The notes under the pieces: model-generated
What the model was told of the DNA's origin: nothing
Database searches by the model: none
Seen by the model: the letters and a program-made list of their open reading frames with translations, nothing else
NCBI GenBank assembly: GCA_045650465.1
Contig: JAZRRF010000024.1
Coordinates: 838 to 64,837 of the forward strand
DNA from: Alistipes sp.
GTDB lineage: Bacteria > Bacteroidota > Bacteroidia > Bacteroidales > Rikenellaceae
Reading direction: 5' to 3'
DNA length: 64,000 nucleotides
Program-made: the position numbers and the translations under genes
Part shown: positions 5,443-59,340 of the stretch, one piece after another
How the letters are laid out: the number at the start of each line of letters is the position of its first letter
Numbering within the stretch: position 1 is the first letter of the stretch

Positions 5443-5447
5443 ACGGT

Positions 5448-5726: not shown

Positions 5727-5737
5727 AGTCGTAAAAT

Positions 5738-6636: not shown

Positions 6637-6655
6637 AACCTCCTGCCTTTAATGT

Positions 6656-8923: not shown

Positions 8924-8939
8924 AGTCGTTTTCTTTTTT

Positions 8940-42400: not shown

Positions 42401-43823
42401 TACCGGCACCGGCCGATGCCGATAGGTCCTCTGCATACATTTCATTATACGCAGTAAGCATAACCACCGACTCCAGGAACTTCTGCTCTGCCTGTGTAAG
42501 AGAGCCTTCGCCCTCATCATTTATCTTGTCAAGCACACCTTGCAACGCTTGACCTCTCTTAATTTCTTCGGCACTCGTCCATGTGTCAGGGTCAAGGATT
42601 GCCGCGCCCATACCGGCAACAAACTGTTTGCCGCCTCCGCCTTCCGCTTGAGCCAACGCCTGTAGATTCTTCGCCTTCGCAATATTCTGCCTGGTGTAGT
42701 TAATCATGTCAAGCTGGCGCGCGACTTCCTGCGCCTCCTCGGTTGGAATACCGTTAATAGACATTGCATCTCTTACCGCATCAGCACTGGTCATGCCTCG
42801 TTGATCTGTGGTCGACAAAGCCATCGCTATATCCCATCCCGCAGGTTTCTCCTTCTCCCAATTAGCCTGCGCTTCACCGGCCTTAGCCTTAATCTCTGCC
42901 TCAATAGAGTCCAAGCCCTCTTCCAGTTCAGCCATCTGTTTGTCGGCCATGTATTTCATCGTGGTATCATCGTCGGCCACACCGGCTTCTATCTGTGCCG
43001 GGGTATATCCGCGTTTTCCTGCTATGGCGCGTTTATCCACAACAGCATCCATAGTCAACTCATTAGCTTTGAGATTTCCGCCTGTGGCCCAACGGAAGAG
43101 CAAGTCATAATCGCCATTTACTCTACGATCGGTAGCTGCTAAGAAATCATCCTCAATCTCGTTGATAGACTTTCCAAACATGCGCTCCAAGGTCTTTACC
43201 TTTGAAGCATCATCAAGTTCGCTAAAATCTGTTCTAACAGCCTCAATAGTTTCGACCTTTTGCTCAGCCTCAACTTTCTGTTGCTTCTTCGACTGCTGCT
43301 TCTGATGTTTGGCATTCCAACCATATTCATGATTAGGGGTTGCATTCTTCTTGACGTCCGGAGTGACACCGACTTTAACTCTAACCTGTTGTGCTACTTC
43401 ATCCACCTGCTCTGGTGTAAGAGGATTGATTATAGCCCCGGAATCATCTTCCTCCTCCTCGTTACCATCGCCCTTTAGAGCTTCCCACTTCTGCCGCACA
43501 CGACTTTTCTTCTGTTCTTCTACAGCTTCCTCTTTTAATCCCAACTCTCCCCCGGTAAGGGTAAAACCATTCTCGCCACCCTTGGGTTGCTGCGCAGGAA
43601 CCGGTGCGGTCGTCTTCTGCTCCACATTGGGAACAAGCATTGCTGCAAACTCTTCGTAACTATCACCAATATCCGTGTAGCCACTATTTCTCATTGCGTC
43701 ATAAGCTACACGCACATTCTCCGGTTTTTCCAACAACTTGTTGAACTCCTCCTGGTTCTCACCAATATCTGTGTACCCCTCATTTTTAAGGGCGTTGTAC
43801 AATATCGTTCTATTGTCGTTCAT
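30417..43823 (-). CDS. giant multidomain (polyvalent-type) virion/ejection protein, about 4470 aa
   Basis: Uninterrupted 13.4-kb ORF; ATG at 43823 (TTG at 43832 in the ORF track). Contains HExxH, kinase-like and RadC/JAB motifs (see domain features). Confidence 0.9.
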   Translation of the reverse strand: MNDNRTILYNALKNEGYTDIGENQEEFNKLLEKPENVRVAYDAMRNSGYTDIGDSYEEFAAMLVPNVEQKTTAPVPAQQPKGGENGFTLTGGELGLKEEAVEEQKKSRVRQKWEALKGDGNEEEEDDSGAIINPLTPEQVDEVAQQVRVKVGVTPDVKKNATPNHEYGWNAKHQKQQSKKQQKVEAEQKVETIEAVRTDFSELDDASKVKTLERMFGKSINEIEDDFLAATDRRVNGDYDLLFRWATGGNLKANELTMDAVVDKRAIAGKRGYTPAQIEAGVADDDTTMKYMADKQMAELEEGLDSIEAEIKAKAGEAQANWEKEKPAGWDIAMALSTTDQRGMTSADAVRDAMSINGIPTEEAQEVARQLDMINYTRQNIAKAKNLQALAQAEGGGGKQFVAGMGAAILDPDTWTSAEEIKRGQALQGVLDKINDEGEGSLTQAEQKFLESVVMLTAYNEMYAEDLSASAGAGKSFMESIPLMFEMAINPLRGTGKAAGKKLLKWAEKRFRSNVLKKGTQVLGNIAGSVAAGYGTAATMQLPGTIAGVQERMQGDVVVDTDEDGKLVYGGQKNEKGAATAVYEEFTERMLDTASEMIGAGYASLPFRQLRKWGKGTKVLGWIDNLANSRFGKTLGNFFERTGWHGPIEEFMEEVHVGLLSPALLRDPKLKDFFNEKDLTTTLIAVAVPGAITSSLRTAVGAYDGSFKLGAQEKWKMQSADRTARTLWGENIAQWDEIKSRLDNGSIENTEETLSEIDQAIKDVYADETLTNEQKKVALQYAVYSLQYKTAIGVSEAITDERQKMLNEMLNGRYEEGYNTDPDTVNGSTIALANKSLDDAETAVRVALGLQNDASIEDFVGGRSVDEVAMGDEAVADALYTYLEEKARYDGMSERLNAERESEIIEADNSVDAVAHEDGNVYMTTLPSTGEVIYITGGTVVLDNDGYIDVNQSEGLVALMPNSKKEAIQAGNIREKVAVENAEAQKAVKRAEIDARYKSQLNTFVYSDSEGDHTVMLVGRRGDMVDALIDGRPTEVPAKEFEAIMADATGKQPVVEGGEVKAEGATSGDVVSPVETTQPIEQPGLSNGLSNETAQTETAQPQVVAPKVAEVPDFFRMDGKNYAVVSRNEDGSVTVDVDGKRVVLLAETNFTTAVPTDKGGKVLFTEMPAEKTLEYFVQRVPNSQARAQMIENNRKQAESALTKFDKEPNVGTDPDAYEAAMNKWEAGKKAAQAKVDYWNEVAKRDAEISQSEMRESVEAVKPREVIEMTPDEFVANQLGGIKITPESFQKETGTKAEQKQMVGVIAGKEKGGVSIERAAEIIYESYGDELRGLGFNGDMQDVRDMIIDVLSNGNPRSFAKKGLEMRQQTDVEQQLAELRGVANALNFESIEEQIAYEESIVPRIMQELKGFDETEYFNNLAENYENDTTRESESTRGSSELLQGEQFADNTGDTNLGEPGQGGKVQGDVYSGGENATSQGNQQVSGSEIPNGSTISQASDQVVDHYTLNSAGNSTQMLKDMEAVRKSNREEYGKISPAYELFYKAKERGLYPNELEELRAIVKGTSLESKVDGWFTPVMAEGGNAPGQSGVAEIKEPTFTEEVLENGDKRITNYNSRGEVATVVTEHDGKVVSVDSYDEGVLFEHTEYDGGGKAASVTRYDKQGNAIGTQVYVDGKAKASHPVADKVLETAKKKQQARFADHAKGVAEKLGVEVTVHNDESTVTNKDAMKAIAEGGEVKGWYNPVTGEIALYMPNMESMRDVESTILHEAVSHYGIKHLLGQEDFDKFLDGVWDMMPAALRAHFLQYVGADMANPSKAKMRQAADEYVAHIAEKMDLNELEKSVWQRFIDYVMNVLRKAGFKNLKQRDVEAVIRASYANLRKNGNVKTENGKVSQVTGQGETMASKKMSERRQEKNRINNVLDEVGGIIYGNKEYAKKQRLKREAERKELAKEIYSSVLKGDFNDVTLSQIDKFIEDATPANPFGRRISQRLPQRMERALRQGARANAVDALFSRISESAVPANERFSEAGRREIEERKKELLKGWAIATGNWHTDLKEFTDDTEPIGEGKDSKVYSSKDGRYVIKASKGKPFGKRFRPDIDNIALFNDVFRDTRYEILGYGEIDGEFVRILQQPIVDFAESTPLTSEERREYMQSLGFEPLNDANTAFADGEIVIADLQKGNVVRDAAGNISVIDADAKLHTKDVGGDYTYPPVETDLPEGTDLGSTMFRKANYNQEVFVSNAQRAVEGIKQEKATPEQWLAMLKKNGGLKAGEEAWMGLSEWLENNESKSLTKQEVLDFVNENTIKIEEVRYSQFGSGMMNEASKKLEAETKEIGWDAMQEKYPGIEDFFEYYNGEVLWSESTVSEGEYEDFILDNKIVDANPADNAINEHRESYTTEGLERKREIALVVPTIEPYNQSDEIHFGDAGEGRAVAWVRFGETTDSEGNRVLVIDEIQSKRHQDGREKGYRGVGLAKEVLAAEEEVRKTNRELTAYREPLKEKYNFKELGGSMFERLKNFDAMLSEEERITMDALGQARNEAEKRLQELRGQERGIPSAPFEKNWYELAMKRMLRLAAEEGFDKVAWTTGEQQAERYNIAKVVSHIECEKVGKNGNKSFSMGLDYKFIVDPNGIVVNSKDEYIGKSIADIVGKPLANKMLEMQEGDTISGDGLRIGGEGMKGFYDKMLPSFVQKYTKKWGAKVGTVEMPSLEQNNVMHSVDVTPEMKESVMEGQTMFRRGNRNDRNFENKNITLHTTGDGRIVRYEQLELFDTDERTTTDIQRGASGGNQTADNRTRTGDIQRDGLAGGDALTLINAPLRPLEEGETSLVQRVFTKSKAFDFTAGEQIESLEDVAYIFKNLEDESIENSFAVLVKDGKPVVLHLGMGHYTSSIINASAVAVAMENVKPDKVYLVHNHPSGALRASNEDVAALEGFRTIYGDIVEKGIIINLKSGKFGIYDTAKETNEERSTKAEGGADVPVETFTFNKQVFDKDFNPAELFQVKNDSDVAAFISSNRLGDRNKIGLLVCNNQNRVVGNVFTPFVGITAASAKKVAKEIVYYTTVMGGNRPVLFGRFPALSAAAKSNLGAYIGLYSGGTIKLLDMVDVESRESVLYEDEMVYGDKSVDNSLNVQEERTLFSKKELTPEQKKKALKENAKAIRRLHNVTSRFPITVLRYLGFALETQEQREMHDSLFAERDAITGESMPAGLQTNPQAMTLQERITESLLKHAEQEKENVEMRLSAIRAYGRDLANVIKLMNAQKVYDRNTVRIFTDLVKMYLRNNAMSGMSSYKIIRLLNLMQKATGGHAKTVNGAAVKIAEIITNEHTSQLEEIMEKQMKTGAERVNASGVVVQGGVDIIGKRILNTYKDAINLDDEGFEEKYNDSFKRVGEIQKQLEENGSNTALENQLKEAQAEADAMLLAATYRNEVKAAEADITKIKNELTGKRTKAEKGEITWKEYHEFAKTINSQIVQLRAQQIDAYQKVLHALSGDIYEGVQRARAFREAEAMRVQRIHDMAESDMNGVDKSAERKEPGAAGKTVDMVVYKNPIVRTVMNGLGTYENYMKYFGRDHLDGRGELFNHFMTAFNEAQDKEWKESQNDFNILEAAAQKIFDKKIIGKTYKTIARESTKGSGVILSYWNGGATVERELTIGQLMYLYMTEKQAEGQMKLRNMGLTEEKVQGAVKKLPAKYKKFADYIQAEFLPQMRPRMNEVHQRMFGASMSEVENYFPLRVNKDARQGNEDINNTSDAIPSTITGSIIKRRVNVTPIDLMANAFDVLNEHIVDMEHWAAYAEFIRDNNTLINDKDFKNRVQNTKSVRYGDGETLWKDFVDTARIATGNYKPKADYLAKLMSGANAAKITYGGFTSLKQIASLPAFLGDANVFDLMWTASTPVGWWSSWNWAIKNLPGFEERWKGRTAGNERLGENEYSIYDSRIMKAARMVGMTPNAFIDAVVVASGARAVYNTRLRFYKSLGLTEYEADKRAKNDAAISYNETQQSGQGAYLSSLQKDGGLVALLTTLFRNSQMAFQRRVVGSMVGIGKKLARGERIREATKQKYIKMGVDEVTAGKQATKEFYKSYAKDFTNLAIFGYGMNYLWVLMGQLPYLLFGDDEEEKEKIYDMAKKVGVTGMFEGFTLGNFAKGLYEKHITDGKYAVGLLEAPFEGDLQKVIDSFEKDGTAAGILQLGIILTEMNTGISPQRLIDLAAAFIDVSDGDVKLANDGVLLGLRILEAPQSQQDMLILDEIYGADAEKVKKVADRYIEYKMTRNFPLGSEDEKRVDKYANKFVETLKERVEKEYSPEDISVIYDQSSDTEKEILKKKWIEGMDERNGTNVAKSLRKEKLEELLGSPVENAATKALHKYSKVNTYEKLETFEDLERWYEYKVLHDKFKSDYEKIRDGEELSPEERAKAVEHYGVYADKGFKEVINAIGAHKKFIKQNKDPEWRMSEVRRLTDIATEIMKRYE
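34955..35240 (-). other. domain of giant ORF: RadC-like JAB/JAMM module
   Basis: SFAVLVKDGKPVVLHLGMGHYTSSIINASAVAVAMENVKPDKVYLVHNHPSGALRASNEDVAALEGF; the HNHPSG is encoded at 35064-35081. Confidence 0.7.
37225..37660 (-). other. domain of giant ORF: small protein-kinase-like module (polyvalent-protein kinase type)
   Basis: GEGKDSKVYSSKDGRYVIKASKG (Gly-rich loop plus Lys), IADLQKGNV (D..K.N catalytic-loop-like), VIDADAK (DFG-like). Confidence 0.5.
38141..38187 (-). repeat. intragenic copy of the heptad motif array
   Basis: Shares the exact 16-mer ttcacatttccgtttt with the intergenic array at 13868-13883; encodes NGNVKTENGKVSQ. Confidence 0.5.
38330..38780 (-). other. domain of giant ORF: zincin-like metallopeptidase (polyvalent-protein MPTase type)
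   Basis: KGWYNPVTGEIALYMPN...STILHEAVSHYGIKHLLG; the HExxH is encoded at 38505-38522. Confidence 0.6.
38810..39018 (-). other. domain of giant ORF: YD/RHS-like repeats
   Basis: ITNYNSRGEVATVVTEHDGKVVSVDSYDEGVLFEHTEYDGGGKAASVTRYDKQGNAIG. Confidence 0.4.
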
Positions 43824-43844
43824 TGCTTGCAATTTTCGTTAGAC

Positions 43845-45551
43845 CTATTTAAACCCTGCTTTTTTTCCGCTGTTAAACCCTGCTGTTTTCCCCTTATTGA
43901 CACTCGGCGGTGTGGCAGTCATGCCACCTCTCTCAAGCGCTCCACGCATCTGATTAACAGACGGGTTAGAGACTGCTTTATATCCATTTACTAAGTCAGG
44001 CTCCATCACTGCCAAGTTTTGATTCGCTTTAACCATCCGCCAATACGCTTCAATAACCGCCTTGTCGTCATTATAATCAAACGCCATACCATTGATGTAG
44101 CGTATCTTTTTTTCCTTGTTGCCCGAACCGCTTCCGCCACCCTGATTCTTTAATCGCTCCTCTCTTGCTCCTTGAATACCCAACAGAGCATTATGATAAC
44201 TCACCTCCTCCTTGAGTCGCGCATTACGGTAGTCCTCGTCAGCCTCCCACTTTGCCTGCGCCACTTCTGCGTCATATTTAGCCTTCGCAGCAGCATTCCG
44301 CTCCTTGCGGTCCGCATCAGCAGCCTCCATGCGCTGCCTTGCATATTCCGCCAACAGCTTCGAGTTGCTTTCCCTTAATGCACGCAGCTTCTCATTAGCC
44401 ACCGCACTACGCGCCTCCTCCTTGTCAATCTTCCACGCACCACCATGCATGGCAGCACCCTTAGTCACAAGGTTAGCAATATCACTTAGTATAGCCATAT
44501 CACGTTCACGCTTAGCCCTTCGCTCCTGCTCTGCGGCAGACTTCTGCGCCTGGGCAATCTGTGCATCCGTCTGCTCTACATAATTACCCTTTTCCATCTC
44601 CGGAAGATCCGGCCATAGAATCGTCTTTTTCCCACCATCCTCAACAGCTGTCTGTGCAGCAGGAGCAGGTGTAGGTGTAGATGTCTCTTTTGCCGGTGTC
44701 ACAGGTGCTTTGGGCTGTGCAGCCGGCGTTTCCTTTTTCACAGCAGGTGTCTGCGGTATTTGTGGCTCGGTCTCTTTACGTTTTTTACCGTCTTCTATCA
44801 GTTTACGCAACTCCTCCGCACTCCAGTTTTCCCTTCCTACTGCATGAGAATAAAAATAAGGATGCATCTCTTTATCTTCATTCATCTCACGTATATGGTA
44901 ACGTTTCAGCCGCGACGGCGATTTTGCAGCTTCAATATCAGCGATAGCCTTGTCATATCGCGACTGTTCAGCTGGAGTTTCCGGCAGAGTTTCAAGAACA
45001 GATCTATGATAATAGTTATCGAGTTTGCTTACACCCGCATTTCGAGCACTCTCGTTAGGAATTCGAGTGCCCCTGATATCAAATGGGCTCACATTTTTTG
45101 GAAATGTAGTTTCTGACTCCTTTTTCTGCGATCTATTTCCCCATATATCCACCTCCTCAAGAACAACTACATCGTCTGACGCTTGTGTGTCAGGTGCAGC
45201 AGGCGTTTCCTCCTTTTGGGAGGCAGCCGGTGTCACAGGTGCTTTGGGCTGTGCAGTATCAAAAGTTCGTCCGGCTTTTTTTGCTATAGGGTTATCAACA
45301 ACTTCATACCACTTCCCACCTATACTGGCATAGTAATTTCCTTTGTTGTCTGCTTCTGTGCCCCGGTTCAACGCTCCTATAATATCACCATCAGAATTTC
45401 TAAATATAGGATATCCAGCAGCCCTCGCAGCTGCGTGGTTATTGGGAATTTCATCGAAGTTTACTTTCTTATAGCGTTTCCCATTCTGCTCAATATATTC
45501 CTCACCTGCCTTGGTCTTCTTGTGATTCTTGTCATCTAATACACTGCTCAT
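43845..45551 (-). CDS. virion/ejection protein, paralog of ORF 26719-28377
   Basis: 568 aa; central roughly 170 aa are near-identical in blocks to the 552-aa protein, with high nucleotide identity (44428-44675 vs 27371-27620). Confidence 0.65.
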   Translation of the reverse strand: MSSVLDDKNHKKTKAGEEYIEQNGKRYKKVNFDEIPNNHAAARAAGYPIFRNSDGDIIGALNRGTEADNKGNYYASIGGKWYEVVDNPIAKKAGRTFDTAQPKAPVTPAASQKEETPAAPDTQASDDVVVLEEVDIWGNRSQKKESETTFPKNVSPFDIRGTRIPNESARNAGVSKLDNYYHRSVLETLPETPAEQSRYDKAIADIEAAKSPSRLKRYHIREMNEDKEMHPYFYSHAVGRENWSAEELRKLIEDGKKRKETEPQIPQTPAVKKETPAAQPKAPVTPAKETSTPTPAPAAQTAVEDGGKKTILWPDLPEMEKGNYVEQTDAQIAQAQKSAAEQERRAKRERDMAILSDIANLVTKGAAMHGGAWKIDKEEARSAVANEKLRALRESNSKLLAEYARQRMEAADADRKERNAAAKAKYDAEVAQAKWEADEDYRNARLKEEVSYHNALLGIQGAREERLKNQGGGSGSGNKEKKIRYINGMAFDYNDDKAVIEAYWRMVKANQNLAVMEPDLVNGYKAVSNPSVNQMRGALERGGMTATPPSVNKGKTAGFNSGKKAGFK

Positions 45552-45565: not shown

Positions 45566-46150
45566 CTATTTACCATTCTTGTTTCTCGGAACTTTAATAC
45601 CCAGCTCGCCAGCCTCAGCCGCAGAATCTTCCACGCCGCCGTCAGCCTTGTCCCAATCTACGCCCTGCAATCCACTCGCAATAAGGCTCGCACCACTACT
45701 CATAAGATTACTTGCCGCCTGCTGCCTTGCCTCAGCAATAGCCGCCTGCTGCTGACTCAAGTTATTATCCATCGCAAGCTTCTGCGCATCGATAGCCGCT
45801 CTATCCTGCTGCCCCTTTGCCGCCAAGTTACCGACCATGTTGCCCATTGCCTCACCACCGGCCTCAGCAACCGCTGCAGCCTGTTCGGGTGTTCCACCGG
45901 TTATAGCCTGTCGCGCTCTCGCCTCCTTTGTTCTCTCCGCCCAAGCATTCCTGTACTGCTTCAACGCATTCTGCGCCTGCACAGTGTTCAGGTAATCCTG
46001 GTAGTAATTACGGTTATACCACGCCTCATTGGCAGCCCTCTGCCGAGCCAACCCTTGTTCTTGTTTCTCCGCCTCCGACGCGCTCTTGTACGCCCCGTAC
46101 AGCGTACTCGCAAGCCCCACGCCTGCACCTATAAGTCCAACTACACTCAT
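45566..46150 (-). CDS. small internal-virion-like protein with N-terminal hydrophobic segment
   Basis: 194 aa; MSVVGLIGAGVGLASTLYGAY, then an A/Q/E-rich helical sequence; first gene of the operon. Confidence 0.6.
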   Translation of the reverse strand: MSVVGLIGAGVGLASTLYGAYKSASEAEKQEQGLARQRAANEAWYNRNYYQDYLNTVQAQNALKQYRNAWAERTKEARARQAITGGTPEQAAAVAEAGGEAMGNMVGNLAAKGQQDRAAIDAQKLAMDNNLSQQQAAIAEARQQAASNLMSSGASLIASGLQGVDWDKADGGVEDSAAEAGELGIKVPRNKNGK

Positions 46151-46286
46151 GTCTTCATTAATTCGAATTAAACACCCAAAGGTGCAAATCCCAACACGAT
46201 TTATCAGTACATAATTAACCCACCATTATGGATAACTGACACAATCCACCTCCTTGCAGGCACTGTATTCTAATTGTTGTGTATCT

Positions 46287-46322
46287 TTGTAGTGTGCATT
46301 GTAGTGTATATTGTAGTGTGCA
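46287..46322 (+). repeat. 12-bp tandem repeat TTGTAGTGT(G/A)(C/T)A x3 (candidate operator array)
   Basis: Read directly; lies 34 nt upstream of the ATG at 46356 in the divergent promoter region. Confidence 0.6.
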
Positions 46323-46355
46323 AAAAACGCCCCCCTTGGAACAGTTTGATAATCA

Positions 46356-46829
46356 ATGAAAAAGAAGTGTCGAAAAAAACCACTTACCGATGAAGAAAAA
46401 ATGCTTGCCGTGCAGGAATACAAGACCAACGGCAACGCATCAGCCATAGCCAGGAAGTACGGCGTTGCACGCACCACCTTTCTCGCCTGGCTGCCATTGT
46501 TCAGCGACACACCAGTATCCAACGACATCGTCACACAAGCCACAGTCAAGGCCATAGAAAAAACCTCCGATGCCGCAGTGCGCTCCATCGAGCAAGCCAC
46601 CGCCACACGCCAGGAATTCCTCCAACAACACTATGCCGGAGTCAGCACACTCTTCTCCGCCCTCATCACCAAGATGACCAAAGAATTGAGCGACGACAAC
46701 AAACACCCCTCACTCCGCGACCAGGCAGCCGCCCTCACCGCCCTCGTCAACTTCGTAAAGGAATTCACACCCACCGAAGAGCAAGGCACCACCACAATAA
46801 ATTTATTGCAGCAGACAGTCAACAATTAA
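46356..46829 (+). CDS. HTH DNA-binding protein (transposase/TerS-like N-terminal HTH plus helical C-terminus); candidate lysogeny regulator
   Basis: LTDEEKMLAVQEYKTNGNASAIARKYGVARTTFLAWL; 157 aa; transcribed opposite to all lytic genes. Confidence 0.6.
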   Translation: MKKKCRKKPLTDEEKMLAVQEYKTNGNASAIARKYGVARTTFLAWLPLFSDTPVSNDIVTQATVKAIEKTSDAAVRSIEQATATRQEFLQQHYAGVSTLFSALITKMTKELSDDNKHPSLRDQAAALTALVNFVKEFTPTEEQGTTTINLLQQTVNN

Positions 46830-46988
46830 CCCCTTCCAGCGGTTCTTTGTCCTTCACGACCTCTTTGCGTGAAAATATTTCAACAAATGCAAAATTCTTG
46901 TGGAAATATTTTGCCACAAAGAAAATAATGCTTACCTTCGCAGTGTAATCAATTAGAACTGGTGGCAACAGTAATTCAGCGTATTATT

Positions 46989-47492
46989 ATGAAGAAGTAT
47001 CAAATCAACGCAATCTGCGATCCTTACAACGCACGTCATCATTATCACGGCCAGCGCGTTATCAGCTACAATTGTGCAACACCCGTTGAATGGGTAATGG
47101 AAGAAGACCTCACACTCGAAGAGGCACAGAATATCCTTGATACTTACGCCAACAACCTCGGCGATGACTACACCTGGAACAATGACGAATGGATCAAGGA
47201 ACTCCAAGAAGAAGGCATCGACACCTCCTGGTATAAGGGTGAAGGTATATACACCGACGGAGTACTCATCTATCAGCACGGCGACATGAGCCTCCGCTAC
47301 GACTCTATGCTCTATAGAATTGAAGAAATGGACACACTCCCCGCAGGCTACACCATGCAGCAAAGCATATCAGGCTACTGGAGGCTCCTCGACAGCGAAG
47401 GCAATTATATCCATGACGACCCTGCATGCGAAGATGTATATGATGAAGGCTCAGCAATCGCATTGTTCAACGAAATCATTAAGAACCCATGA
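46989..47492 (+). CDS. hypothetical acidic protein
   Basis: ATG at 46989 (the ORF-track GTG is at 46962); 167 aa; stop overlaps the XRE start (ATGA). Confidence 0.55.
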   Translation: MKKYQINAICDPYNARHHYHGQRVISYNCATPVEWVMEEDLTLEEAQNILDTYANNLGDDYTWNNDEWIKELQEEGIDTSWYKGEGIYTDGVLIYQHGDMSLRYDSMLYRIEEMDTLPAGYTMQQSISGYWRLLDSEGNYIHDDPACEDVYDEGSAIALFNEIIKNP

Positions 47493-47686
47493 ATATAAGA
47501 GAAGAAATTGGTACACAACTCCGCGCCCTGCGCGAGGCCAAAGGCCTCACCACCCGGGAACTCGCAGAACTCGCCGGCATCGACTACTCACACATCGCGA
47601 AGATCGAGCGCGGCACATACAACCTCCGCGTCGACACACTCCACAAGGTCGCAACCGCACTTGGAGCGGAAATTAAAATCGAATAA
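47489..47686 (+). CDS. XRE-family HTH transcriptional regulator (Cro/CI-like)
   Basis: LRALREAKGLTTRELAELAGIDYSHIAKIERGTYNLRVDTLHKVATALG. Confidence 0.8.
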   Translation: MNIREEIGTQLRALREAKGLTTRELAELAGIDYSHIAKIERGTYNLRVDTLHKVATALGAEIKIE

Positions 47687-47693
47687 GACAACA

Positions 47694-47729
47694 AGAGGCA
47701 ACCACCACGGCTGCCTCTTTTCTTTTTTA
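47694..47729 (+). terminator. rho-independent terminator after the XRE gene
   Basis: AGAGGCA-loop-TGCCTCT followed by TTTCTTTTTT. Confidence 0.7.
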
Positions 47730-47861
47730 TCCTTTGTTTTGTCAAACACTTTTACTTTACCCTCAAATTTTGCCAACATTAACTATCAATCAGTTAGCAA
47801 AAATTTCCCAAAAGGCAAAACGCAAATACCTTGTAAACAATTTTCTTAACCACACACAAAC

Positions 47862-47893
47862 AAAAAACCCCGACCATCCTAAGACAGCCGGGG
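47862..47893 (-). terminator. rho-independent terminator of the SPFH cassette
   Basis: Minus strand CCCCGGC...GTCGGGG followed by TTTTTTG, 13 nt after the stop at 47906. Confidence 0.6.
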
Positions 47894-47905
47894 TTGAGTG
47901 TGGAG

Positions 47906-48577
47906 TTATTCTGTGGGGCAAGTGGAGAAAGTGATGGTTACATCAAGAGATTTACCATTGCCGTGAAGGCGGAATGTTTCTTTGCTATAATCTTTGGCAC
48001 ATTCTGCTCCAGTTGATTTGAACTTGTTGTCACGCAATATGCTTCTCAACTTATTGGCAACATGACTTAAAGGGCTGGAGCCTGGAAGAGGTATTGCCTC
48101 TTCTTTGGTCTGCTCCACTATCACTTCGCCTGTGGGCTCGGACTCTTCGTTTACCGGTTCCTCACCTTCTACAAAACCTTCCACCGTAAGGTCAACCTCT
48201 GCAGGCTCCTCATTTTCACAAACTTTCTCCATCTCCTCGTCTTGAGTCTCCTTCTCCGCAACATCAGGATCCTCGCCAGCCTCTTCATTGAGTGAATTCT
48301 TCAACTCCTCCAACTTCTCCCTGTTCCTTTTCTCCTCCTCGATGGTTTCACCGACTCTCTTGAAGAACGACGACAGGCCATCGTCAAAAGTTTCAGGCAA
48401 CTCCACATTTTTGCAGATAAACTTGTAAAGCTCTTCTGCCGCGGTGAAGTTGATTATCTTCTCACCTTCCTTCCATTGTGTTGTAAACTCGATTGCATAC
48501 TTGAGGGCCTCGCCTTTGCTCTTGAAACCACTCATACTCGGTGTGCCGGTAAGCCCGGCGCTTAATGCTTCAAACAT
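47906..48577 (-). CDS. highly acidic protein
   Basis: ATG at 48577, chosen because the longer ORF would overlap the SPFH gene; central segment EEAGEDPDVAEKETQDEEMEKVCENEEPAEVD...EEPVNEESEP. Confidence 0.55.
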   Translation of the reverse strand: MFEALSAGLTGTPSMSGFKSKGEALKYAIEFTTQWKEGEKIINFTAAEELYKFICKNVELPETFDDGLSSFFKRVGETIEEEKRNREKLEELKNSLNEEAGEDPDVAEKETQDEEMEKVCENEEPAEVDLTVEGFVEGEEPVNEESEPTGEVIVEQTKEEAIPLPGSSPLSHVANKLRSILRDNKFKSTGAECAKDYSKETFRLHGNGKSLDVTITFSTCPTE

Positions 48578-48596
48578 AAGATTAAAATTTAAAGGG

Positions 48597-49412
48597 TTAT
48601 TTAATAAACTTAGACGCATCCACAAATGTGCCGCCACCGGCAACAATCGGTGTCTTGCCATCCCATTTCTCAAGCGCTTTCATCTGCACAAGGTTATTTG
48701 ATAGTGAAGCCGCCACCACGCGATTGTAATAGGCTTCCGCATCGGCCTGAATCTTCAGCGCCTCAGCATTTCCCTTCGCAATGGCAATCTTCTTTTCAGC
48801 CTCCGCATTAGCCACAGCCACCTCATTCTCTACTCTCATCTGATCCTGCACAGCCTTATTCTTCTGGTTAATTGCATCCTCATAGGATTTCGGGTACTGT
48901 ATACCCGGAGAGAGCTGGTCCAGGATAAAGTTCTCAGCAAGGAAATACTCCCTTACCCTTGCTTCAAAGGCCTTATCCACAGCCTCACGGTTCGACACAA
49001 TCTCATCCGCATTGTATTTGTTAAACTCAATTCGTGCAGCATCCTTGATATAGACATATAATGTCTTGGTTATAATCTCGTCCATCCCCTTGCGGTACTT
49101 CTTGAACACAATCGGCGCTTTGCCATCCTGCATCTTAATAAGCGCCGAAGGATCGACCGTAAACCTCGAACCATCCTTTGAGTTGATCTCAAACGCGGGA
49201 TAGTCCACCGTCTGCACAAAGGTGGGATACTCGAATACCGCAACCTTAATTGGGTTATACCACATGGCGCCGGTCACAAGCACCACATCATCCACACCCT
49301 TACCGTCGCCGTAAAGGTTCACTTTGATACCCTCATGTCCGGCATCAATTCTCTCGTAAGCACACGATGTCAACAACAGCGCAGAAAGCGCAAACAACAT
49401 AATCTTCTTCAT
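48597..49412 (-). CDS. SPFH/band-7 (prohibitin/stomatin-like) domain lipoprotein
   Basis: Signal plus lipobox LLLTSC|AY. ERIDAGHEGIKV ... FTVDPSALIKM ... a C-terminal AEAEKKIAIAKGNAEALKIQADAEAYYN coiled coil typical of SPFH proteins. Confidence 0.8.
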   Translation of the reverse strand: MKKIMLFALSALLLTSCAYERIDAGHEGIKVNLYGDGKGVDDVVLVTGAMWYNPIKVAVFEYPTFVQTVDYPAFEINSKDGSRFTVDPSALIKMQDGKAPIVFKKYRKGMDEIITKTLYVYIKDAARIEFNKYNADEIVSNREAVDKAFEARVREYFLAENFILDQLSPGIQYPKSYEDAINQKNKAVQDQMRVENEVAVANAEAEKKIAIAKGNAEALKIQADAEAYYNRVVAASLSNNLVQMKALEKWDGKTPIVAGGGTFVDASKFIK

Positions 49413-49600
49413 TTGTTTTTGATTTTAAGGTTAATAAAACATTTGGTCTTGTAAGATATAAAAGCAAACATCACCGGCAAGACACAACCGATGACATTCA
49501 AAACACTATTACTTGCATTGATGGCTGCAAGGCTTAATTCAAAAACGGCAAAAGCGATAATGCACCAGGCCAAAAGTTTTACAAAAGTCGATGTTTTCAT
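49409..49600 (-). CDS. two-TM small membrane protein
   Basis: 63 aa with two hydrophobic helices; stop overlaps the SPFH start (ATGA). Confidence 0.55.
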   Translation of the reverse strand: MKTSTFVKLLAWCIIAFAVFELSLAAINASNSVLNVIGCVLPVMFAFISYKTKCFINLKIKNK

Positions 49601-50079
49601 TTCGTTTCAATGTTAAGTTTTCTCTCCCATGGACGACGGGTTTTGTTGAACTCATTGATTTTATCCTTCAGCAGGTCCCTCTCACGTTTTGCTTCGCTGA
49701 TCTCAAGTTCAGCCCTGAACGACTTGCTTTCAAGCTCGTCACATCTTTTCTTCTGCTCCTCAAGCATGTTCGCAATTTCCTTTGCGACTTTCTCGCCGAG
49801 AATGAAGCCATCAAAGAAAGGATAGCCACTCATAATGTAGATATTCTTACCCTCAAGAGCTGCAATCAAGAGACTCACGCTCTTTGCGTTCATGACAAAC
49901 TCACCACTTATGTGCACCGACTCCTTTCCGCCTTTCAGTACACCATTGTTTGCGGTGACAATAACCTTCAGGTCTTCAGTGATTGTCACCGTCTGTTTTT
50001 TCTCACTGCGAGCAGCATCGCCCGACACAGCCTTCATTGGGTTGTAACCCTGTTTTCTGTTTTCCATTTTGTTTTCCAT
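49597..50079 (-). CDS. hypothetical protein (beta-rich core plus C-terminal coiled coil)
   Basis: 160 aa; ATG at 50079; stop overlaps the next start; first gene after the terminator at 50092-50130. Confidence 0.55.
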   Translation of the reverse strand: MENKMENRKQGYNPMKAVSGDAARSEKKQTVTITEDLKVIVTANNGVLKGGKESVHISGEFVMNAKSVSLLIAALEGKNIYIMSGYPFFDGFILGEKVAKEIANMLEEQKKRCDELESKSFRAELEISEAKRERDLLKDKINEFNKTRRPWERKLNIETK

Positions 50080-50091
50080 TTTTTAAATTTT

Positions 50092-50130
50092 GTTTGCAAA
50101 GAAAATCAGCCTCTCTTGCAAGGGGCTGAT
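50092..50130 (-). terminator. rho-independent terminator ending the early-gene operon
   Basis: Minus strand ATCAGCCCC-loop-GAGGCTGAT followed by TTTTCTTTG. Confidence 0.6.
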
Positions 50131-50137
50131 TATCAAA

Positions 50138-50308
50138 TTATTTCTTTTTTCCGTACATCTCAAGTGTTTGCTTCTCATCCTCGGCGGCCTGTCGGGTTGT
50201 AAAGACTTTCACTATGCCCCAGTCTTTCTCCTCGGGGTAATACTCTTCCACCGCCCAGAGCGTGTCGCCAAAGCGGTCAGTTGAATGAGTTGTTCTGTAC
50301 TTGCTCAT
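50138..50308 (-). CDS. hypothetical small protein
   Basis: ATG at 50308 (MSKYRTTH) avoids overlap with the upstream gene; 56 aa. Confidence 0.45.
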   Translation of the reverse strand: MSKYRTTHSTDRFGDTLWAVEEYYPEEKDWGIVKVFTTRQAAEDEKQTLEMYGKKK

Positions 50309-50318
50309 GATATTTATT

Positions 50319-50549
50319 TTAAGAGTTATCACTTGGCAACGGACACCAATCAGGTAGATATTTCAACACCTCTCGACCTATTTGTATATTCGTAAAATAC
50401 ACATCGTCGGGGATATACGGTTCAGGTTGTAACTGATGGCTCGGATGAGTGCATAAGTATTCCACACGCATTTCTCCGTTATATTCAAGCTCTTTTCTTT
50501 TACAATAGGGGCAGTTGAAGCACCCTGTAACTACAATTTTTCTTTGCAT
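50319..50549 (-). CDS. small Cys-containing (zinc-ribbon-like) protein
   Basis: 76 aa; CFNCPYC ... C..PSH ... C. Confidence 0.5.
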   Translation of the reverse strand: MQRKIVVTGCFNCPYCKRKELEYNGEMRVEYLCTHPSHQLQPEPYIPDDVYFTNIQIGREVLKYLPDWCPLPSDNS

Positions 50550-50551
50550 AA

Positions 50552-50836
50552 TTACATTTGTTCTTTAATTAAATTAAACCAATCCGCAAGCTCGCGGAAT
50601 TCGGGATTGAATTTGTAATTCTCATCGTACTTCCTGTCGTAATAACTGACAGTCGCATGATCCTTGTTCAGCCTGTTACTAATCTTTTCCAGACCAAAAC
50701 CTTGCAGTCGCAGATGACGCGCCATGATGAACCGGCAATAAGTGATATCCATGTATCTGCCTGGTGGAATCTGCTCACCCATCAGCGCAGCAAGGAGTAT
50801 TGGTTTCGGGTTTATTCGTTTTCTCATACATATCAT
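50552..50836 (-). CDS. DnaA domain IV-like HTH protein
   Basis: ATG at 50836 (ATGA overlap with the upstream stop). ITYCRFIMARHLRLQGFGLEKISNRLNKDHATVSYYDRKY resembles the DnaA C-terminal DNA-binding domain (RQIAMYL ... DHTTV). Confidence 0.5.
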   Translation of the reverse strand: MICMRKRINPKPILLAALMGEQIPPGRYMDITYCRFIMARHLRLQGFGLEKISNRLNKDHATVSYYDRKYDENYKFNPEFRELADWFNLIKEQM

Positions 50837-51132
50837 TCTTGATCTTTCTCGTTTAACATTTCGCAAAGGAGCTTTGCCCGTAGGTGGGCTATCTTCTTTG
50901 ATCCTTCGTTAGTGTATGGGAATGCTTTAATGTAATGTAAATCTGGTGAATCCTCGCATTCTACATAAACAATATATTTGCCAACGTTTGTCATACAACA
51001 ATACTTGCAACGATTATTCTCAACCGCTTTATTTGTTGCGACATGCTCTTCGTACACTCGCCAGTAATAGGCATTTCCATCTTTCGGCACATAGCCGAAC
51101 CATTCAAATAGTTTGTTGATGATTCGTTTCAT
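50833..51132 (-). CDS. hypothetical protein
   Basis: 99-aa ATG-initiated ORF in the co-directional early array. Confidence 0.5.
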   Translation of the reverse strand: MKRIINKLFEWFGYVPKDGNAYYWRVYEEHVATNKAVENNRCKYCCMTNVGKYIVYVECEDSPDLHYIKAFPYTNEGSKKIAHLRAKLLCEMLNEKDQE

Positions 51133-51155
51133 GGTTCAAAACTTTTAGTTTTGTT

Positions 51156-51253
51156 AAAAAAAAGAGGTGGGGTTTACATCTTGGTTTATAGCCGTCAAGT
51201 TACGGGCTAACTTCTTAGAGGGAATTACCACGCTCCGATTCCCTTACCCCAAA
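51156..51253 (-). ncRNA. candidate multi-hairpin terminator or small RNA
   Basis: Minus strand: closing stem UGGGGU...ACCCCA encloses AGGGAAU-loop-AUUCCCU and GUUAGCC...GGCUA(UA)AC, and is followed by CCUCU8. A G+C-richer island in an A+T-rich region. Confidence 0.3.
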
Positions 51254-51349
51254 GTTACGTTTGAATTACTCACATTAAGTGAAACTTAATCGCCTGTGAT
51301 AAACACATATTTTTGCATTGGGCGATAATCGCTGTTACGATTGTACCTC

Positions 51350-51718
51350 TTATTGCTTTAAGTATTCTTTGTTAAATGCTTTTGCGTTAATAAGTCTTTC
51401 TATATCGCATATCAATCGTTCATAGCAATAATCTATATTGTTTTTGTTAGTAATATCCAACGCAAACGTTTTATTACCTTTAATTGCTATTTCCAGTAGC
51501 CGATGCAGACTCCAAGCGGGAATGTCATTTGAACGCAATAATTCTTCCCATTCTCTTCTTATACGAAGATGGTACTCTATATCACCTTCGGCATCTTCGC
51601 TACCTTCAGCATAATACATATCTGCAGTCTCAGGTTTCAATCCCAATTCCAACAAGCGTTGGCTCTGTTCTTTAGTAGTGCATACCTGCGAATTAAATTT
51701 TAGTTCTGTCTTTTGCAT
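51350..51718 (-). CDS. hypothetical protein
   Basis: 122-aa ATG-initiated ORF. Confidence 0.5.
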   Translation of the reverse strand: MQKTELKFNSQVCTTKEQSQRLLELGLKPETADMYYAEGSEDAEGDIEYHLRIRREWEELLRSNDIPAWSLHRLLEIAIKGNKTFALDITNKNNIDYCYERLICDIERLINAKAFNKEYLKQ

Positions 51719-51959
51719 ATTGAAAATCTTTTATCATTACAATTTGTTTGCTTGGTTTTTCCATTAAAGAAAATGGGTATCTTATCCCATTTTGGGTTTC
51801 TACGCAAAACTGGTGTTGCCTATATTTGTATCCCTTTACACGGACAACACCTTCTATTTTATGTTCCACACCTTCTGAGAAGTAGCACATCTTAACTGTC
51901 TGCCCAGTTGCTATAGCTTTACGATTTCGGTCGATAATACCTGTTAAAATGTTTGCCAT
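51693..51959 (-). CDS. hypothetical protein
   Basis: 88-aa ATG-initiated ORF. Confidence 0.5.
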   Translation of the reverse strand: MANILTGIIDRNRKAIATGQTVKMCYFSEGVEHKIEGVVRVKGYKYRQHQFCVETQNGIRYPFSLMEKPSKQIVMIKDFQYAKDRTKI

Positions 51960-51960
51960 A

Positions 51961-52170
51961 TCATTCTATCGGTTTAAACATTTCACACTCTTCTGTTTCA
52001 AAGTCGTATTCTTCATCAACGTGTGGAGGACATATATTGGGCGATAGAAAGCCATTTACTGCTTTCTTGCGCAACTCCTTGCGAAGCCAATACCTGTAAC
52101 ACTTATCTCTTATTGCACAGGCTCTACCCATACAATGCGCTACATCGGTGGTGTAGGTTATCTTACTCAT
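51961..52170 (-). CDS. small Cys-rich protein
   Basis: 69 aa with six Cys (CMGRAC..DKC ... C ... C). Confidence 0.5.
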   Translation of the reverse strand: MSKITYTTDVAHCMGRACAIRDKCYRYWLRKELRKKAVNGFLSPNICPPHVDEEYDFETEECEMFKPIE

Positions 52171-54740: not shown

Positions 54741-55517
54741 TTACGCTGCCATTTTCTTGTTATACAAATCGAGAATAAACTGCTTGCCGAGTTCAGTCCA
54801 GTACATCTGCTGTCGGGTCTTGAAGTTGCCTTGACTATCGACATAGGGGTGCGGACGGTGGACTACATAACCTCTATCGCGGTATTTGGCTTTGAGGTGG
54901 TAGGTCTTGCTCTCGTAATATTGCACATCCCATTCGCAGAGCAGTTTGTTGAGTTTGATTGCAGAGATACCCAAGCAGTCGGCTATCATATTGACGGTAA
55001 GGTAGCCTTCGGAAGATAATACCTTGTCGTGGTATTCTACCTTTGGGGCTTGGAGCTTGAGTTGATGCTCTTGCTCGATATTCACAAGTTGCAGGCGTTC
55101 TTTCTCTTCTTCGGCTTCGAGGGCCAACTGAATTAACTCTTTGCGTGTAAGCTCACGTTGTACCATTTTGGCGGCTCCATGAAATACTTGTCGGTAAACC
55201 TCAAACACAGGGCGAATGCGGCGGGCGATGAAGAACTCCAAACAGGAAACTGTGAGGTAGTAATCAACAGTCGGACGACCGCCATTTGGGTTTTGCGGAT
55301 TTTTCCGCAAAACTTGATAATCAACGCCTTCAATGAAAGAAGAGTTTTGCAGAGCCTCGACTGCGTCAGATTTCCTTGTATAGACAAGCATCCATACTTC
55401 ATCGAGATTGATTGGAAACTCGTTGTCGGATTTAGACAACTCTAAAATTGCGGAGAAGTAACTTTTAATTTCGTTTGAGGTACTCTCCTTTGTGAGGATT
55501 AAATTTGTTTGTGCCAT
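54741..55517 (-). CDS. second phage antirepressor (Ant-like N-terminus plus KilAC C-terminus)
   Basis: C-terminus LQAPKVEYHDKVLSSEGYLTVNMIADCLGISAIKLNKLLCEWDVQYY is homologous to the C-terminus of ORF 28899-29663. ATG at 55517 (or 55541). Confidence 0.75.
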   Translation of the reverse strand: MAQTNLILTKESTSNEIKSYFSAILELSKSDNEFPINLDEVWMLVYTRKSDAVEALQNSSFIEGVDYQVLRKNPQNPNGGRPTVDYYLTVSCLEFFIARRIRPVFEVYRQVFHGAAKMVQRELTRKELIQLALEAEEEKERLQLVNIEQEHQLKLQAPKVEYHDKVLSSEGYLTVNMIADCLGISAIKLNKLLCEWDVQYYESKTYHLKAKYRDRGYVVHRPHPYVDSQGNFKTRQQMYWTELGKQFILDLYNKKMAA

Positions 55518-55726
55518 GATTAAGACAATTTTTGGCATCATAGGACAGAAGAATGGCGTCCACTTCCCATTGTCTCACTTCCTAATAGGCAAGTTGCTAC
55601 GCCATTAAGCAATAGCATGGGGTTGAACGCCATAGTAAATGCCTTTCCCGTCGACTTTCACCATAGAGGCAGTGGGTGCATTAACACTCCACACGGGGGT
55701 ACAATCGCTATATTTAGCACAAACAA

Positions 55727-58160: not shown

Positions 58161-58381
58161 AGTTTCGCAATTAAGCAGATTAAATACCCAATATAAAGTA
58201 TTATATTAACAATCGCTGTAACCATAATAACCCAAGCAATAGCCCTCATCAACTGAGGATTGTACTTGTACTCTCCTGTCGCATACCAATAGAATCTATT
58301 CTTCTTGTCGACTTTATTAAACACACACAGCGCAATAAGCAGTAGCACGCTTACTATTGCGCAAAAACTCGAAATTCTCAT
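58157..58381 (-). CDS. small membrane protein
   Basis: 74 aa with 2-3 hydrophobic helices; ATG overlaps the upstream stop. Confidence 0.5.
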   Translation of the reverse strand: MRISSFCAIVSVLLLIALCVFNKVDKKNRFYWYATGEYKYNPQLMRAIAWVIMVTAIVNIILYIGYLICLIAKL

Positions 58382-59340
58382 AGTTTTCTCAATCTTGATA
58401 AAATAAATGCACCGGGTTGGTTAATCTTCCCCTTCTTAATCTCCTTGATGGCATATTGCAGTTCAACCAAAGCCTGCCGCTTGCCTCCGGCAATGCCATA
58501 AATCTCGCAATAGTCAAGATCCGAGAGATTATCCTTGCACCAACATATCGCATGATACCATTCAGTGTTGACATCTCCCGCCTGTTTACGCAGCGACTCG
58601 TTCAACTGATTCAGCGGATACCTCAACCGCTTCGTCTCCTCATCCAACTGCAACCACTCGCGGTAGTATTGGGTAAACCCATTCTGGAAGCTTCCGCTAA
58701 TCGCAACCGCATCCCATACATCCTCGCGTATCTGCGCCCATTTCCCAAGTTCAGAATATAAATTCTTAACCTCTCCTCCTCCTCGCGTGTGCGCGTCTTG
58801 AGGAAGATTATTTACTTCTATTCTATTCTCTTTACTTCTCTTTACTTCTCTTCGCGGCAAACTTCCCGAACAATCGTCCATTCCTCCCGAACAATCCGCT
58901 GTTTCTTCACTTTCCTCCGGAATAATCTCACTTTCCTCCGGAATAATCTCGCATTTTTCCGTAAGTTTGATATTTTCAGGAATTACAGCATCTTTGCGTT
59001 TCGCCCGTTGGCAGAAATCCATATAACGCTCTTGTATGGAGCGCGAAGTAACAACACCTTCCGCAAGTTTCTCCTCGTCAAAAAGCCCAACCGAAGCACA
59101 GAATGACACAACCTGTTTAACAACATCTTCCGTCAATGCAAGATATTCTGCAACATCAAAGATTATATCCTCTGTCCATTCAAGGAAACACCCCTTGTCG
59201 CGGTAAATCTCACATAAGACATAGTCATATACCGCAAGGCCTTGACAGCCATGCGCCTTCTTCAGACGTTTAATCTTGATATCCTGGTAGCGGTCTGTGT
59301 CAACAGAGAAGTAGTTGAGTCCAATTTTTGCTTTAGCCAT
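58378..59340 (-). CDS. replication initiation protein (DUF4373 / Lin1244-Lin1753-like N-domain)
   Basis: MAKAKIGLNYFSVDTDRYQDIKIKRLKKAHGCQGLAVYDYVLCEIYRDKGCFLEW is typical of Bacteroidota phage replication proteins as I recall them. Confidence 0.65.
   Translation of the reverse strand: MAKAKIGLNYFSVDTDRYQDIKIKRLKKAHGCQGLAVYDYVLCEIYRDKGCFLEWTEDIIFDVAEYLALTEDVVKQVVSFCASVGLFDEEKLAEGVVTSRSIQERYMDFCQRAKRKDAVIPENIKLTEKCEIIPEESEIIPEESEETADCSGGMDDCSGSLPRREVKRSKENRIEVNNLPQDAHTRGGGEVKNLYSELGKWAQIREDVWDAVAISGSFQNGFTQYYREWLQLDEETKRLRYPLNQLNESLRKQAGDVNTEWYHAICWCKDNLSDLDYCEIYGIAGGKRQALVELQYAIKEIKKGKINQPGAFILSRLRKL
58811..58950. repeat. cluster of short direct repeats inside the replication gene (iteron-like)
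   Basis: TTTACTTCT x3 (58811, 58831, 58841); TCCCGAACAATC x2 (58864, 58885); 21-mer cactttcctccggaataatct x2 (58909-58929, 58930-58950). Confidence 0.6.

Follow-up and report, generated by a model that had tools for sequence, protein, structure and literature searches.

SPFH proteins occur across life, recent cryo-electron microscopy has resolved them as membrane cages, and their roles in bacteria are vague. Among them, the prokaryotic prohibitins (SPFH4, also called p-prohibitins) were inferred to have a periplasmic topology and were present in 14 of 27 Bacteroidetes/Chlorobi genomes, versus one for HflK/C, with no NfeD partner found for them (Hinderhofer 2009, PMC2636767). For the SPFH protein QmcA and its partner YbbJ, the transmembrane (TM) helices of the partner are described as part of the cage, in the words of a citing paper (Tan et al. 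2024 as cited in PMC12624060). On the phage side, reports of SPFH genes go back to 2006 (PMC1524935), the phage-encoded copies have been a puzzle for annotators for twenty years, and a paper from 2026 still states that their presence there 'remains unclear' (PMC13239085). The subject of this work is one of these genes, located together with three others on the minus strand of a contig of Alistipes sp. (JAZRRF010000024.1), within a window (i.e., the whole stretch of DNA analysed, 64,000 nucleotides long) that is a temperate phage or prophage. A first-pass annotation had described there a terminator-bounded cassette of four genes, whose open reading frames (ORFs) exist as described, with products given in amino acids (aa):

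Upstream hairpin and U-rich tract: 50093..50134, minus strand, after the stop codon of the 64-aa gene that precedes (50138) and before the start of g1
g1: 50079-49597, minus strand, 160 aa (156 aa if the start is 50067)
g2: 49600-49409, minus strand, 63 aa, two hydrophobic helices, basic ends, pI 9.7
g3: 49412-48597, minus strand, 271 aa, SPFH/Band-7 lipoprotein
g4: 48577-47906, minus strand, 223 aa, pI 4.49, net charge -25
Intrinsic-terminator-like hairpin and U-tract: 47856..47896, minus strand, end of the minus-strand operon

Translational coupling of all four genes, as had been proposed, is borne out by ATGA overlaps for g1/g2 and g2/g3, but not for g3/g4, which are separated by a gap of 19 nt. 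Sequence comparison indicates that the conserved unit in this region is the g2-g3 pair, not the four genes.

The SPFH lipoprotein and its hairpin partner

The assignment of g3 to the SPFH proteins holds in profile searches, with 77.2 bits against Pfam PF01145 (Band_7; cut-off 23.6, E 2.1e-21, residues 21-207) and an E-value of 1.2e-60 against phrog_200 ('lipoprotein'). Its N-terminus, MKKIMLFALSALLLTSC, carries an L-T-S-C lipobox, the end of the signal peptide (MKKIMLFALSALLL-T-S-C) matching the lipobox pattern [LVI][ASTVI][GAS]C, and neither Ser16 nor Cys17 varies among 19 homologues; the match to Pfam LPAM_1 (16.2 bits) stays under the cut-off of 20. As judged from these features, g3 is a true SPFH/Band-7 lipoprotein with predicted acylation. 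The family is large, with 2740 homologues, matches in 517 GenBank phage records and another 370 in IMG/VR, the latter found with an alignment-based scan (a single-protein scan of viral contigs found nothing).

Regarding the kind of SPFH protein, the best PDB profile match is prohibitin-2 (5e-9). The AlphaFold2 (AF2) model has an overall predicted local distance difference test (pLDDT) score of 68.5 and a confident core at residues 64-235 (pLDDT ~76-95), and it shows the SPFH alpha/beta domain followed by a long C-terminal helix (residues 175-236). Its Foldseek matches at probability 1.00 are PHB1/2, HflK/C, stomatin, QmcA, erlin and flotillin, with PHB1/2 in the top six places, and they include the cage structures of PHB1/2, HflK/C-FtsH, stomatin and QmcA-YbbJ (PDB 8z5g). 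The g3 family probably fits the description of SPFH4, in the sense that the best PDB matches in both sequence and fold are prohibitins and that export is implied by the lipobox. An identity as HflK/HflC orthologue was considered too and is ruled out by the score against NCBIfam TIGR01933 hflK (14.2 bits, far under the cut-off of 159.4) and by the presence of one SPFH gene in place of a K and C pair.

Two observations concern related phage proteins. The SPFH record of Cellulophaga phage phi4:1 gp165 (L181) has a note beginning 'part of structural ...', and the proteome of a Vi01-like phage, Sajous1, includes the SPFH lipoprotein gp200 with three peptides (PMC10892097 Table). Because of these, the SPFH lipoprotein may co-purify with virions or membrane vesicles.

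The 63 aa of g2, whose gene overlaps both neighbours, are wholly occupied by two TM helices, for which the positive-inside rule predicts a hairpin with both termini in the cytoplasm (N-in/C-in). The short, predictedly periplasmic loop between the helices carries a motif of the hairpin family (INASNSVLNVIG in g2) that was defined on 118 non-redundant sequences as [LM]-[LIV]-[STN]-x-[PA]-[SDN]-[TD]-x-x-[VN]-x-x-G at the inter-helix turn, with the G conserved in 85% and the V/N in 99%. By hydropathy, a two-TM ORF of 60-86 aa lies immediately upstream of the SPFH gene, often overlapping it, in at least 73 of the 80 retained IMG/VR loci. A profile seeded only with 41 partners from cellular Bacteroidota loci, iterated three times and searched (E <0.01) against the 11,903 six-frame ORFs of at least 40 aa from every locus and the window, gave 163 matches, all of them within 800 nt upstream of an SPFH gene and on its strand. 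This covers 161 of the 179 SPFH loci, including all 80 from IMG/VR, with jumbo, N4-like, rV5-like and T7-like phages represented among them; g2 itself matches with an E-value of 6.6e-16. The E-values of training sequences are inflated in this design, and the informative result is that there was no match at all among the ~11,700 other ORFs. With g2 as single query, a search of 1.84 billion proteins returned 34 cluster representatives, nearly all full-length (59-74 aa).

In PHROGs, the hairpin partners from P1-like, Stx2a, N4-like, rV5-like, T7-like and Rhizobium phages belong to phrog_1130 ('membrane protein') and that from a Pseudomonas phage to phrog_11110. A direct scan of g2 against phrog_1130 gave no match, and neither did one of the crAss-like partner; g2 is linked to the phrog_1130-like partners through the iterated profile. 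The first-pass annotation had expected a small membrane partner of the NfeD type, and of this the partner stood and the type did not: g2 is not NfeD-like, since a Pfam scan of g2 and ten diverse hairpin partners found no family, including NfeD (PF01957), and since 63 aa are too short for an OB-fold domain. The hairpin is instead a candidate for the missing partner of SPFH4.

A protein of these features could also be taken as part of a lysis system, in which the hairpin would act like a holin or antiholin while the SPFH scaffold controlled the membrane breach or aided the export of a cell-wall hydrolase. On paper g2 does resemble a class II holin (~60 aa, two TM helices, basic C-terminus), and there are two suggestive neighbourhoods. 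In Kayvirus, lysK and tgl flank the SPFH gene mbpS and the holin-like mbpV, for which an aid to Tgl secretion has been suggested (PMC7150955), while crAss-like phages (L084 2767-4615; IMG/VR groups L013-L014, L037-L047) have the order hairpin, SPFH, two-TM protein of ~115-121 aa and glucosaminidase-like peptidoglycan hydrolase. That hydrolase neighbour is, however, confined to crAss-like lineages and one other group, so that the link concerns only one or two phage lineages and may be plain shared gene order. Moreover, no holin family in Pfam or PHROGs matches g2, the Amidase_3 endolysin candidate of the window (8327-8977) is ~40 kb away, and many Bacteroidota carry the hairpin family on the chromosome, beside housekeeping genes, unlike what a holin would show. 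A holin identity for g2 was rejected on these grounds, and we consider a lysis function of the pair quite improbable. As a side note on the same lineage, some crAss-like phages have an 84-aa soluble ORF between the hairpin and the SPFH gene.

Spread of the pair in phages and bacterial chromosomes

The pair is found far from the Bacteroidales phage in which it was noticed. The g2-g3-type pairs include those of:

crAss-like phage cr126_1 (L084)
Lak-like megaphages
Phages of ~180 kb and ~81 kb
P1-like phage NC_050153 (L085)
Stx2a phage LC567818 (L086), with the partner ORF (1816-2004) unannotated
Bruynoghevirus
Rhizobium phage IC12, Proteus phage Mydo, Erwinia phage S6 and Desulfovibrio phage ProddE

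The GenBank annotator label on the SPFH homologue of ProddE is cd03401 SPFH_prohibitin. The hairpin ORF is also unannotated in Burkholderia phage vB_SR1 (L184 ~1000-1180) and in Rhizobium phage IC12 (L177 995-1198), where the 'lipoprotein' coding sequence is drawn with 359 aa from an upstream GTG, covering the partner position in another frame. In P1-like NC_050153, the hairpin-SPFH pair lies between the tRNA genes and ban and replaces plp-upl-tciABC of P1 (L088, NC_005856 69.4-71.0 kb), the tRNA-ban interval being a swap site for membrane-related accessory genes in the C1-controlled ban region. The two genes of the P1-like phage are labelled 'membrane protein' and 'lipoprotein', which had raised the idea that the module is the upl-plp pair of P1. 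The pair is not the same as P1 upl-plp, since plp encodes 125 aa from the opposite strand and P1 proper has no module. On the side of hosts, some module-bearing phage-like contigs (L094, L095, L098, L101, L102, L104) are binned in metagenome-assembled genomes (MAGs) of Tenericutes, Bacilli, Clostridium and Oscillospiraceae; these are probably binning errors, and host assignment from such records is unsafe.

This breadth bears directly on the function that had been proposed first, in which g3 acts on FtsH in the manner of HflK/C, tunes the stability of a CII-like regulator and thereby sets the lysis-lysogeny decision. The phage of the window is temperate, with an integrase (2144-3424) and an antirepressor, its module is near HTH/XRE genes, complexes of HflK/C with FtsH and of prohibitins with AAA proteases are the nearest structural relatives of g3, and the idea has been put forward for other phages (PMC8540360, PMC10269572). 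But the module is also carried by strictly virulent lineages (Crassvirales, Schitoviridae, Vequintavirinae, Autographiviridae, Kayvirus, Lak) and by bacterial chromosomes, so that such a decision cannot be its general function; the same doubt, based on virulent phages carrying the gene, is already in print (PMC8540360). In addition, g3 is no orthologue of HflK, no gene resembling CII or CIII was identified, and the closeness to the HTH/XRE region, which had been part of the initial argument, is not conserved, the XRE gene being absent beside the module in the closest relative, L081. A role in lysogeny control is in our view improbable even for this phage.

As for bacteria, when one genome per species was scanned, the chromosomal pair was detected, at ~48-50% identity, in Flavobacterium, Chitinophaga, Sphingobacterium, Pontibacter, Pedobacter, Siphonobacter and other genera, and among 69 loci from Flavobacterium, Chitinophaga, Sphingobacterium, Pontibacter and related genomes it is present in about 57. 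The neighbours, which from their translations we take to be peptidyl-tRNA hydrolase (Pth), NuoA/B and regulators, are conserved only within a genus. Because of this and of their housekeeping nature, the pair appears to be a free-standing chromosomal module of Bacteroidota that was acquired by phages. The cellular SPFH copies have an N-terminus resembling a TM anchor, and not all of them have the Cys, whereas the phage copies have a proper lipobox. A contig of a Bacteroidia MAG (L165, ~5200-6760) shows yet another arrangement, with two tandem SPFH genes (262 and 254 aa) and no hairpin gene.

Could the pair be a device against competing phages? Small inner-membrane proteins and lipoproteins, such as T4 Imm/Sp and T5 Llp, are the usual agents of superinfection exclusion, and the pair, expressed from the prophage or early, would block incoming DNA at the inner membrane. 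Its accessory, moron-like position and its mobility are those of such a device, phrog_1130 is in the PHROGs category 'moron, auxiliary metabolic gene and host takeover', the pair of the Stx2a phage stands beside int and xis, and in Vi01-like phages the SPFH gene adjoins an annotated superinfection exclusion gene (PMC3220722). Nonetheless, the PADLOC models matched none of the four proteins (0 families), the genes of the window are placed in an early operon of lytic direction, behind a hairpin and with no promoter of their own recognised, and the chromosomal copies with housekeeping neighbours in free-living Bacteroidota favour a cell-physiological role. Exclusion is therefore an unlikely explanation, if one with several points in its favour.

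The mosaic end of the early operon

Conservation of the four genes together had been set beforehand as the test of the cassette, and the co-occurrence survey shows instead three independent units, i.e., g1, g2-g3 and g4. In L081, the SPFH protein is 93% identical to that of the window and g2 86%, the gene at the position of g1 only 38%, and g4 is absent, as are the neighbouring XRE and 176-aa genes. Conversely, L089 and L090 lack g2-g3, and their g4 (77% identical) comes directly after a g1-like gene (38% identical); in L091-L093 g4 closes the operon without g1, g2 or g3. No homologue of g1 or g4 was found in the 80 IMG/VR and 80 genome loci bearing the SPFH gene.

The junctions of these swaps lie exactly at stop codons. 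The nucleotide similarity to L081 starts at 49664, inside the 3' end of g1, and the g4 unit is bounded by the stop '...ATTAAATAA' and the terminator sequence 'CTCCACACTCAACCCCGG'; the ATTAAATAA stop is that of g3 in the window and that of the g1-like gene in L089, and in L081 the stop of g3 directly abuts the terminator. The swap points are at 48597-48600 and 47906-47910 in the window, at ~8811-8820 in L081 and at ~4975-4985 in L089. Each falls on a stop codon, and these stop codons have short identical strings in common (ATTAAATAA / AATAA), which suggests that the modules were swapped by recombination between microhomologies at the ends of genes.

Such presence and absence among close relatives, together with the existence of cellular homologues, would also be expected if the pair were a near-neutral passenger, namely a host two-gene unit picked up by recombination and of no specific benefit to the phage, and SPFH mutants usually have weak phenotypes (PMC13086221). 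Yet the pair has stayed intact in at least 370 contigs of IMG/VR and in 517 phage records of GenBank, which span many virus families and host phyla, it is retained in size-constrained podophages of 42-45 kb, and the phage copies have consistently acquired the lipobox. We regard a passenger as very improbable.

The other two genes are clade-specific accessory genes unrelated to the SPFH module. The product of g1 begins with MENKMENRK, and the true start is probably at 50067 (156 aa), since most homologues begin at the second Met (MENRK). Its 61 homologues share a conserved N-terminal part of ~95 aa, a coiled coil whose length varies and, at the C-terminus, the conserved motif FNxTRRPWERKL. No family was found in Pfam, PHROGs, NCBIfam or the PDB profile search, whose matches were at chance level. 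The beta-rich core and coiled coil described at first rest on a model of low confidence (pLDDT 57), too poor for a fold search, in which only the helix at residues 96-146 is confident. A relationship to Mu Gam, derived from the JGI name 'Gam' on one distant homologue, was discarded, the Pfam family being unmatched in 16 members.

For g4, a DNA mimic had been suggested on account of its acidity. The acidic stretch (residues 81-160) separates conserved N-terminal (residues 8-75) and C-terminal (residues 160-223) domains, is highly variable in length and is deleted in P0130, a homologue with 84% identity; it thus behaves as a linker, which argues against a structured DNA mimic and leaves that proposal weak. 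The 76 homologues belong to no known family, g4 closes the early operon in related phages, and a sub-threshold match to Arm-DNA-bind_4 (19.8 bits vs 22.3) was treated as chance.

Concerning transcription, both flanking hairpins with their U-tracts are present, and their folds beat shuffled controls. The downstream one has a 13-bp stem (47895-47866) with seven G-C pairs followed by the T-run TTTTTTGTTTGT, its dG is -23.9 kcal/mol (z -4.8, none of 200 shuffles being equally stable), and the element is also found directly after the SPFH stop in L081 and after the g4 stop in L089. The upstream one (~50134-50101, followed by UUUUCUUU) has a dG of -15.8 kcal/mol and a z of -3.3 against shuffles, aligns with the relative L089, and is not listed by a simple consensus terminator scan, which found only the downstream hairpin; the upstream one could be a terminator or an attenuator. 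No internal promoter is recognised, because the sole match to the Bacteroides-type promoter TAnnTTTG inside the region overlaps the start codon of g4, and a scan for sigma-70 promoters stayed at chance level.

The four genes are at the end of a long minus-strand operon made of small early genes, in a window with the following further features:

2144-3424: integrase
4970-5401, minus strand: DUF7841 protein, other prophage arm
8327-8977, minus strand: Amidase_3 endolysin candidate, other prophage arm
10137-10985, minus strand: family-2 glycosyltransferase, possible surface-modifying conversion gene, other prophage arm
17728-19815: large terminase
23605-25584: portal
30417-43832, minus strand: giant ORF of 4471 aa, after the genes of the gp14-like and 568-aa proteins
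43845-45551: 568-aa protein, just downstream of the four-gene region
45566-46150: T7 gp14-like internal virion protein, just downstream of the four-gene region
within 46962-47686, plus strand: XRE-type HTH gene (65 aa) and acidic 176-aa gene (pI 4.25)
54741-55541: antirepressor
58378-59340: replication initiator

Relatives of the giant protein have polyvalent-protein domains, with matches to ART-PolyVal, ddrB-ParB, LPD23 and RadC, and the 4471-aa protein has the appearance of a polyvalent protein ejected by a temperate, podovirus-like phage of Bacteroidales. The converging unit of the XRE and 176-aa genes probably ends at a second hairpin (47693-47719), after which there is a T-run on the plus strand, and 47.69-47.90 kb would therefore be a two-way terminator zone. 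There is no close cultured relative, given that a megablast search of window positions 46000-52000 against phages returned no match.

A possible membrane scaffold and its relation to described systems

The reading that we prefer, and in which our confidence is evenly balanced, is that g2-g3 constitutes a host-derived, mobile, two-component SPFH scaffold that would face the periplasm and modulate protein quality control in the inner membrane. In it, g3 would be exported and lipid-anchored, with its prohibitin-like SPFH domain facing the periplasm, an orientation proposed because the phage copies have a lipobox, the cellular copies have an N-terminal anchor and the topology of Hinderhofer 2009 is the same. 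By analogy with all solved SPFH assemblies, g3 would oligomerise through its long C-terminal helix into a membrane ring or cage. The hairpin g2 would sit in the inner membrane (N-in/C-in), with only its conserved loop exposed to the periplasm, beside the highly conserved membrane-proximal start of g3 (conserved segment ER[IV]DAGxEGIxVNLYGDxKGV), and might be a dedicated integral-membrane subunit of the assembly, i.e., take the role that NfeD has for stomatin-type SPFH proteins while being unrelated to it. In this prophage, the pair would have entered the end of the early operon, with g1 on one side of it and g4 on the other. The assembly could then fence a patch of inner membrane and modulate membrane-protein quality control in the infected cell, the best-precedented target being the FtsH protease, which would be sequestered or gated as in the precedents of HflK/C and prohibitin. 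The benefit would be a general one, for instance phage or host membrane proteins being stabilised and the membrane kept intact and energised, and not a dedicated lysis-lysogeny switch.

Several points weigh against this scaffold. The g2-g3 contact, the g3 cage and the membrane that would hold it are all predictions, and the conserved gene order would be equally expected from a co-inherited two-gene mobile unit with no obligate complex. The FtsH link comes from the analogy of the family, within which membership in HflK fails outright. Furthermore, the N-terminal 60 residues of the g3 model are of low confidence, ~12 cellular SPFH loci have no hairpin partner, and the SPFH genes of Firmicute phages have a different upstream gene, with a single TM helix. 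The localisation of g3 is uncertain as well. An Asp at +2 is the inner-membrane retention signal in E. coli, and among eight homologues from proteobacterial phages only three have it (the P1-like, Stx2a and Burkholderia phage copies), five being without.

A farther-reaching version, tentative and in our judgement somewhat more probably wrong than right, would make the hairpin the obligate partner that prohibitin-type SPFH proteins facing the periplasm have long lacked, and so a second, NfeD-independent class of co-subunit in Bacteroidota and in phages of at least three host phyla; the phage-built cage would take charge of quality control in the inner membrane (FtsH) or close the membrane to incoming DNA or to effectors of abortive infection.

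Whichever function applies, what had looked like an odd prophage gene becomes a defined two-component module with one tiny partner, a chromosomal counterpart and an existence as an independent block. It is accessible in easy systems, such as E. coli phages of the P1, Stx and N4 types, and the partner ORF, missed in several GenBank records, could be called systematically.

Turning to described systems, the SPFH gene itself is a further member of a known, uncharacterised phage family, and the initial remark that it has no described function is correct for the searchable literature (PMC13239085), though the gene family is widely annotated. That literature gave no description of the near-universal coupling to one hairpin family, of the chromosomal presence in Bacteroidota or of the mobility as a two-gene block; nothing was found there on SPFH and crAss-like phages, and nothing relevant on SPFH and phage defence. 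In PHROGs, g3 is a clear member of phrog_200 (1.2e-60), and the database gives neither the pairing nor any function.

The HflK/HflC-FtsH system of E. coli shares with g3 the SPFH fold, and HflK/C has a history in lysogeny. Its cage (7wi3, 9cz2 and 9paw among the Foldseek matches of g3) is known to face the periplasm from the inner membrane, which is a prediction here, and the differences are that g3 is not an orthologue, has a lipid anchor and is a single SPFH gene in place of two. QmcA faces the cytoplasm. The SPFH-NfeD operons (QmcA-YbbJ, PH1511-PH1510, YuaG-YuaF) resemble the pair in the translational coupling of an SPFH gene to that of a small membrane protein, but here the partner is a hairpin without NfeD or OB-fold, its gene comes first and the SPFH domain would be periplasmic. 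Kayvirus MbpV-MbpS likewise has a small membrane-protein gene directly upstream of a phage SPFH gene (PMC7150955), but it differs in its Gram-positive host, in an SPFH TM anchor instead of a lipobox, in its location in the lysis region and in the partner itself, which has a single TM helix with a long charged tail and is undetected by the hairpin profile.

The closest likeness is to SPFH4 (p-prohibitins) and to eukaryotic PHB1/PHB2, which give the best sequence and structure matches and share with g3 the long C-terminal helix, the frequency in Bacteroidetes and the non-cytoplasmic domain, which for g3 is predicted. They differ in that the phage copies are lipoproteins and not TM-anchored, and in that there is a single gene and not a PHB1/PHB2 pair. 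The last difference is the conserved two-TM partner, which was unreported for the subfamily in the 2009 survey, and with which the prohibitin-like bacterial SPFH proteins gain a candidate for a partner that was thought absent.

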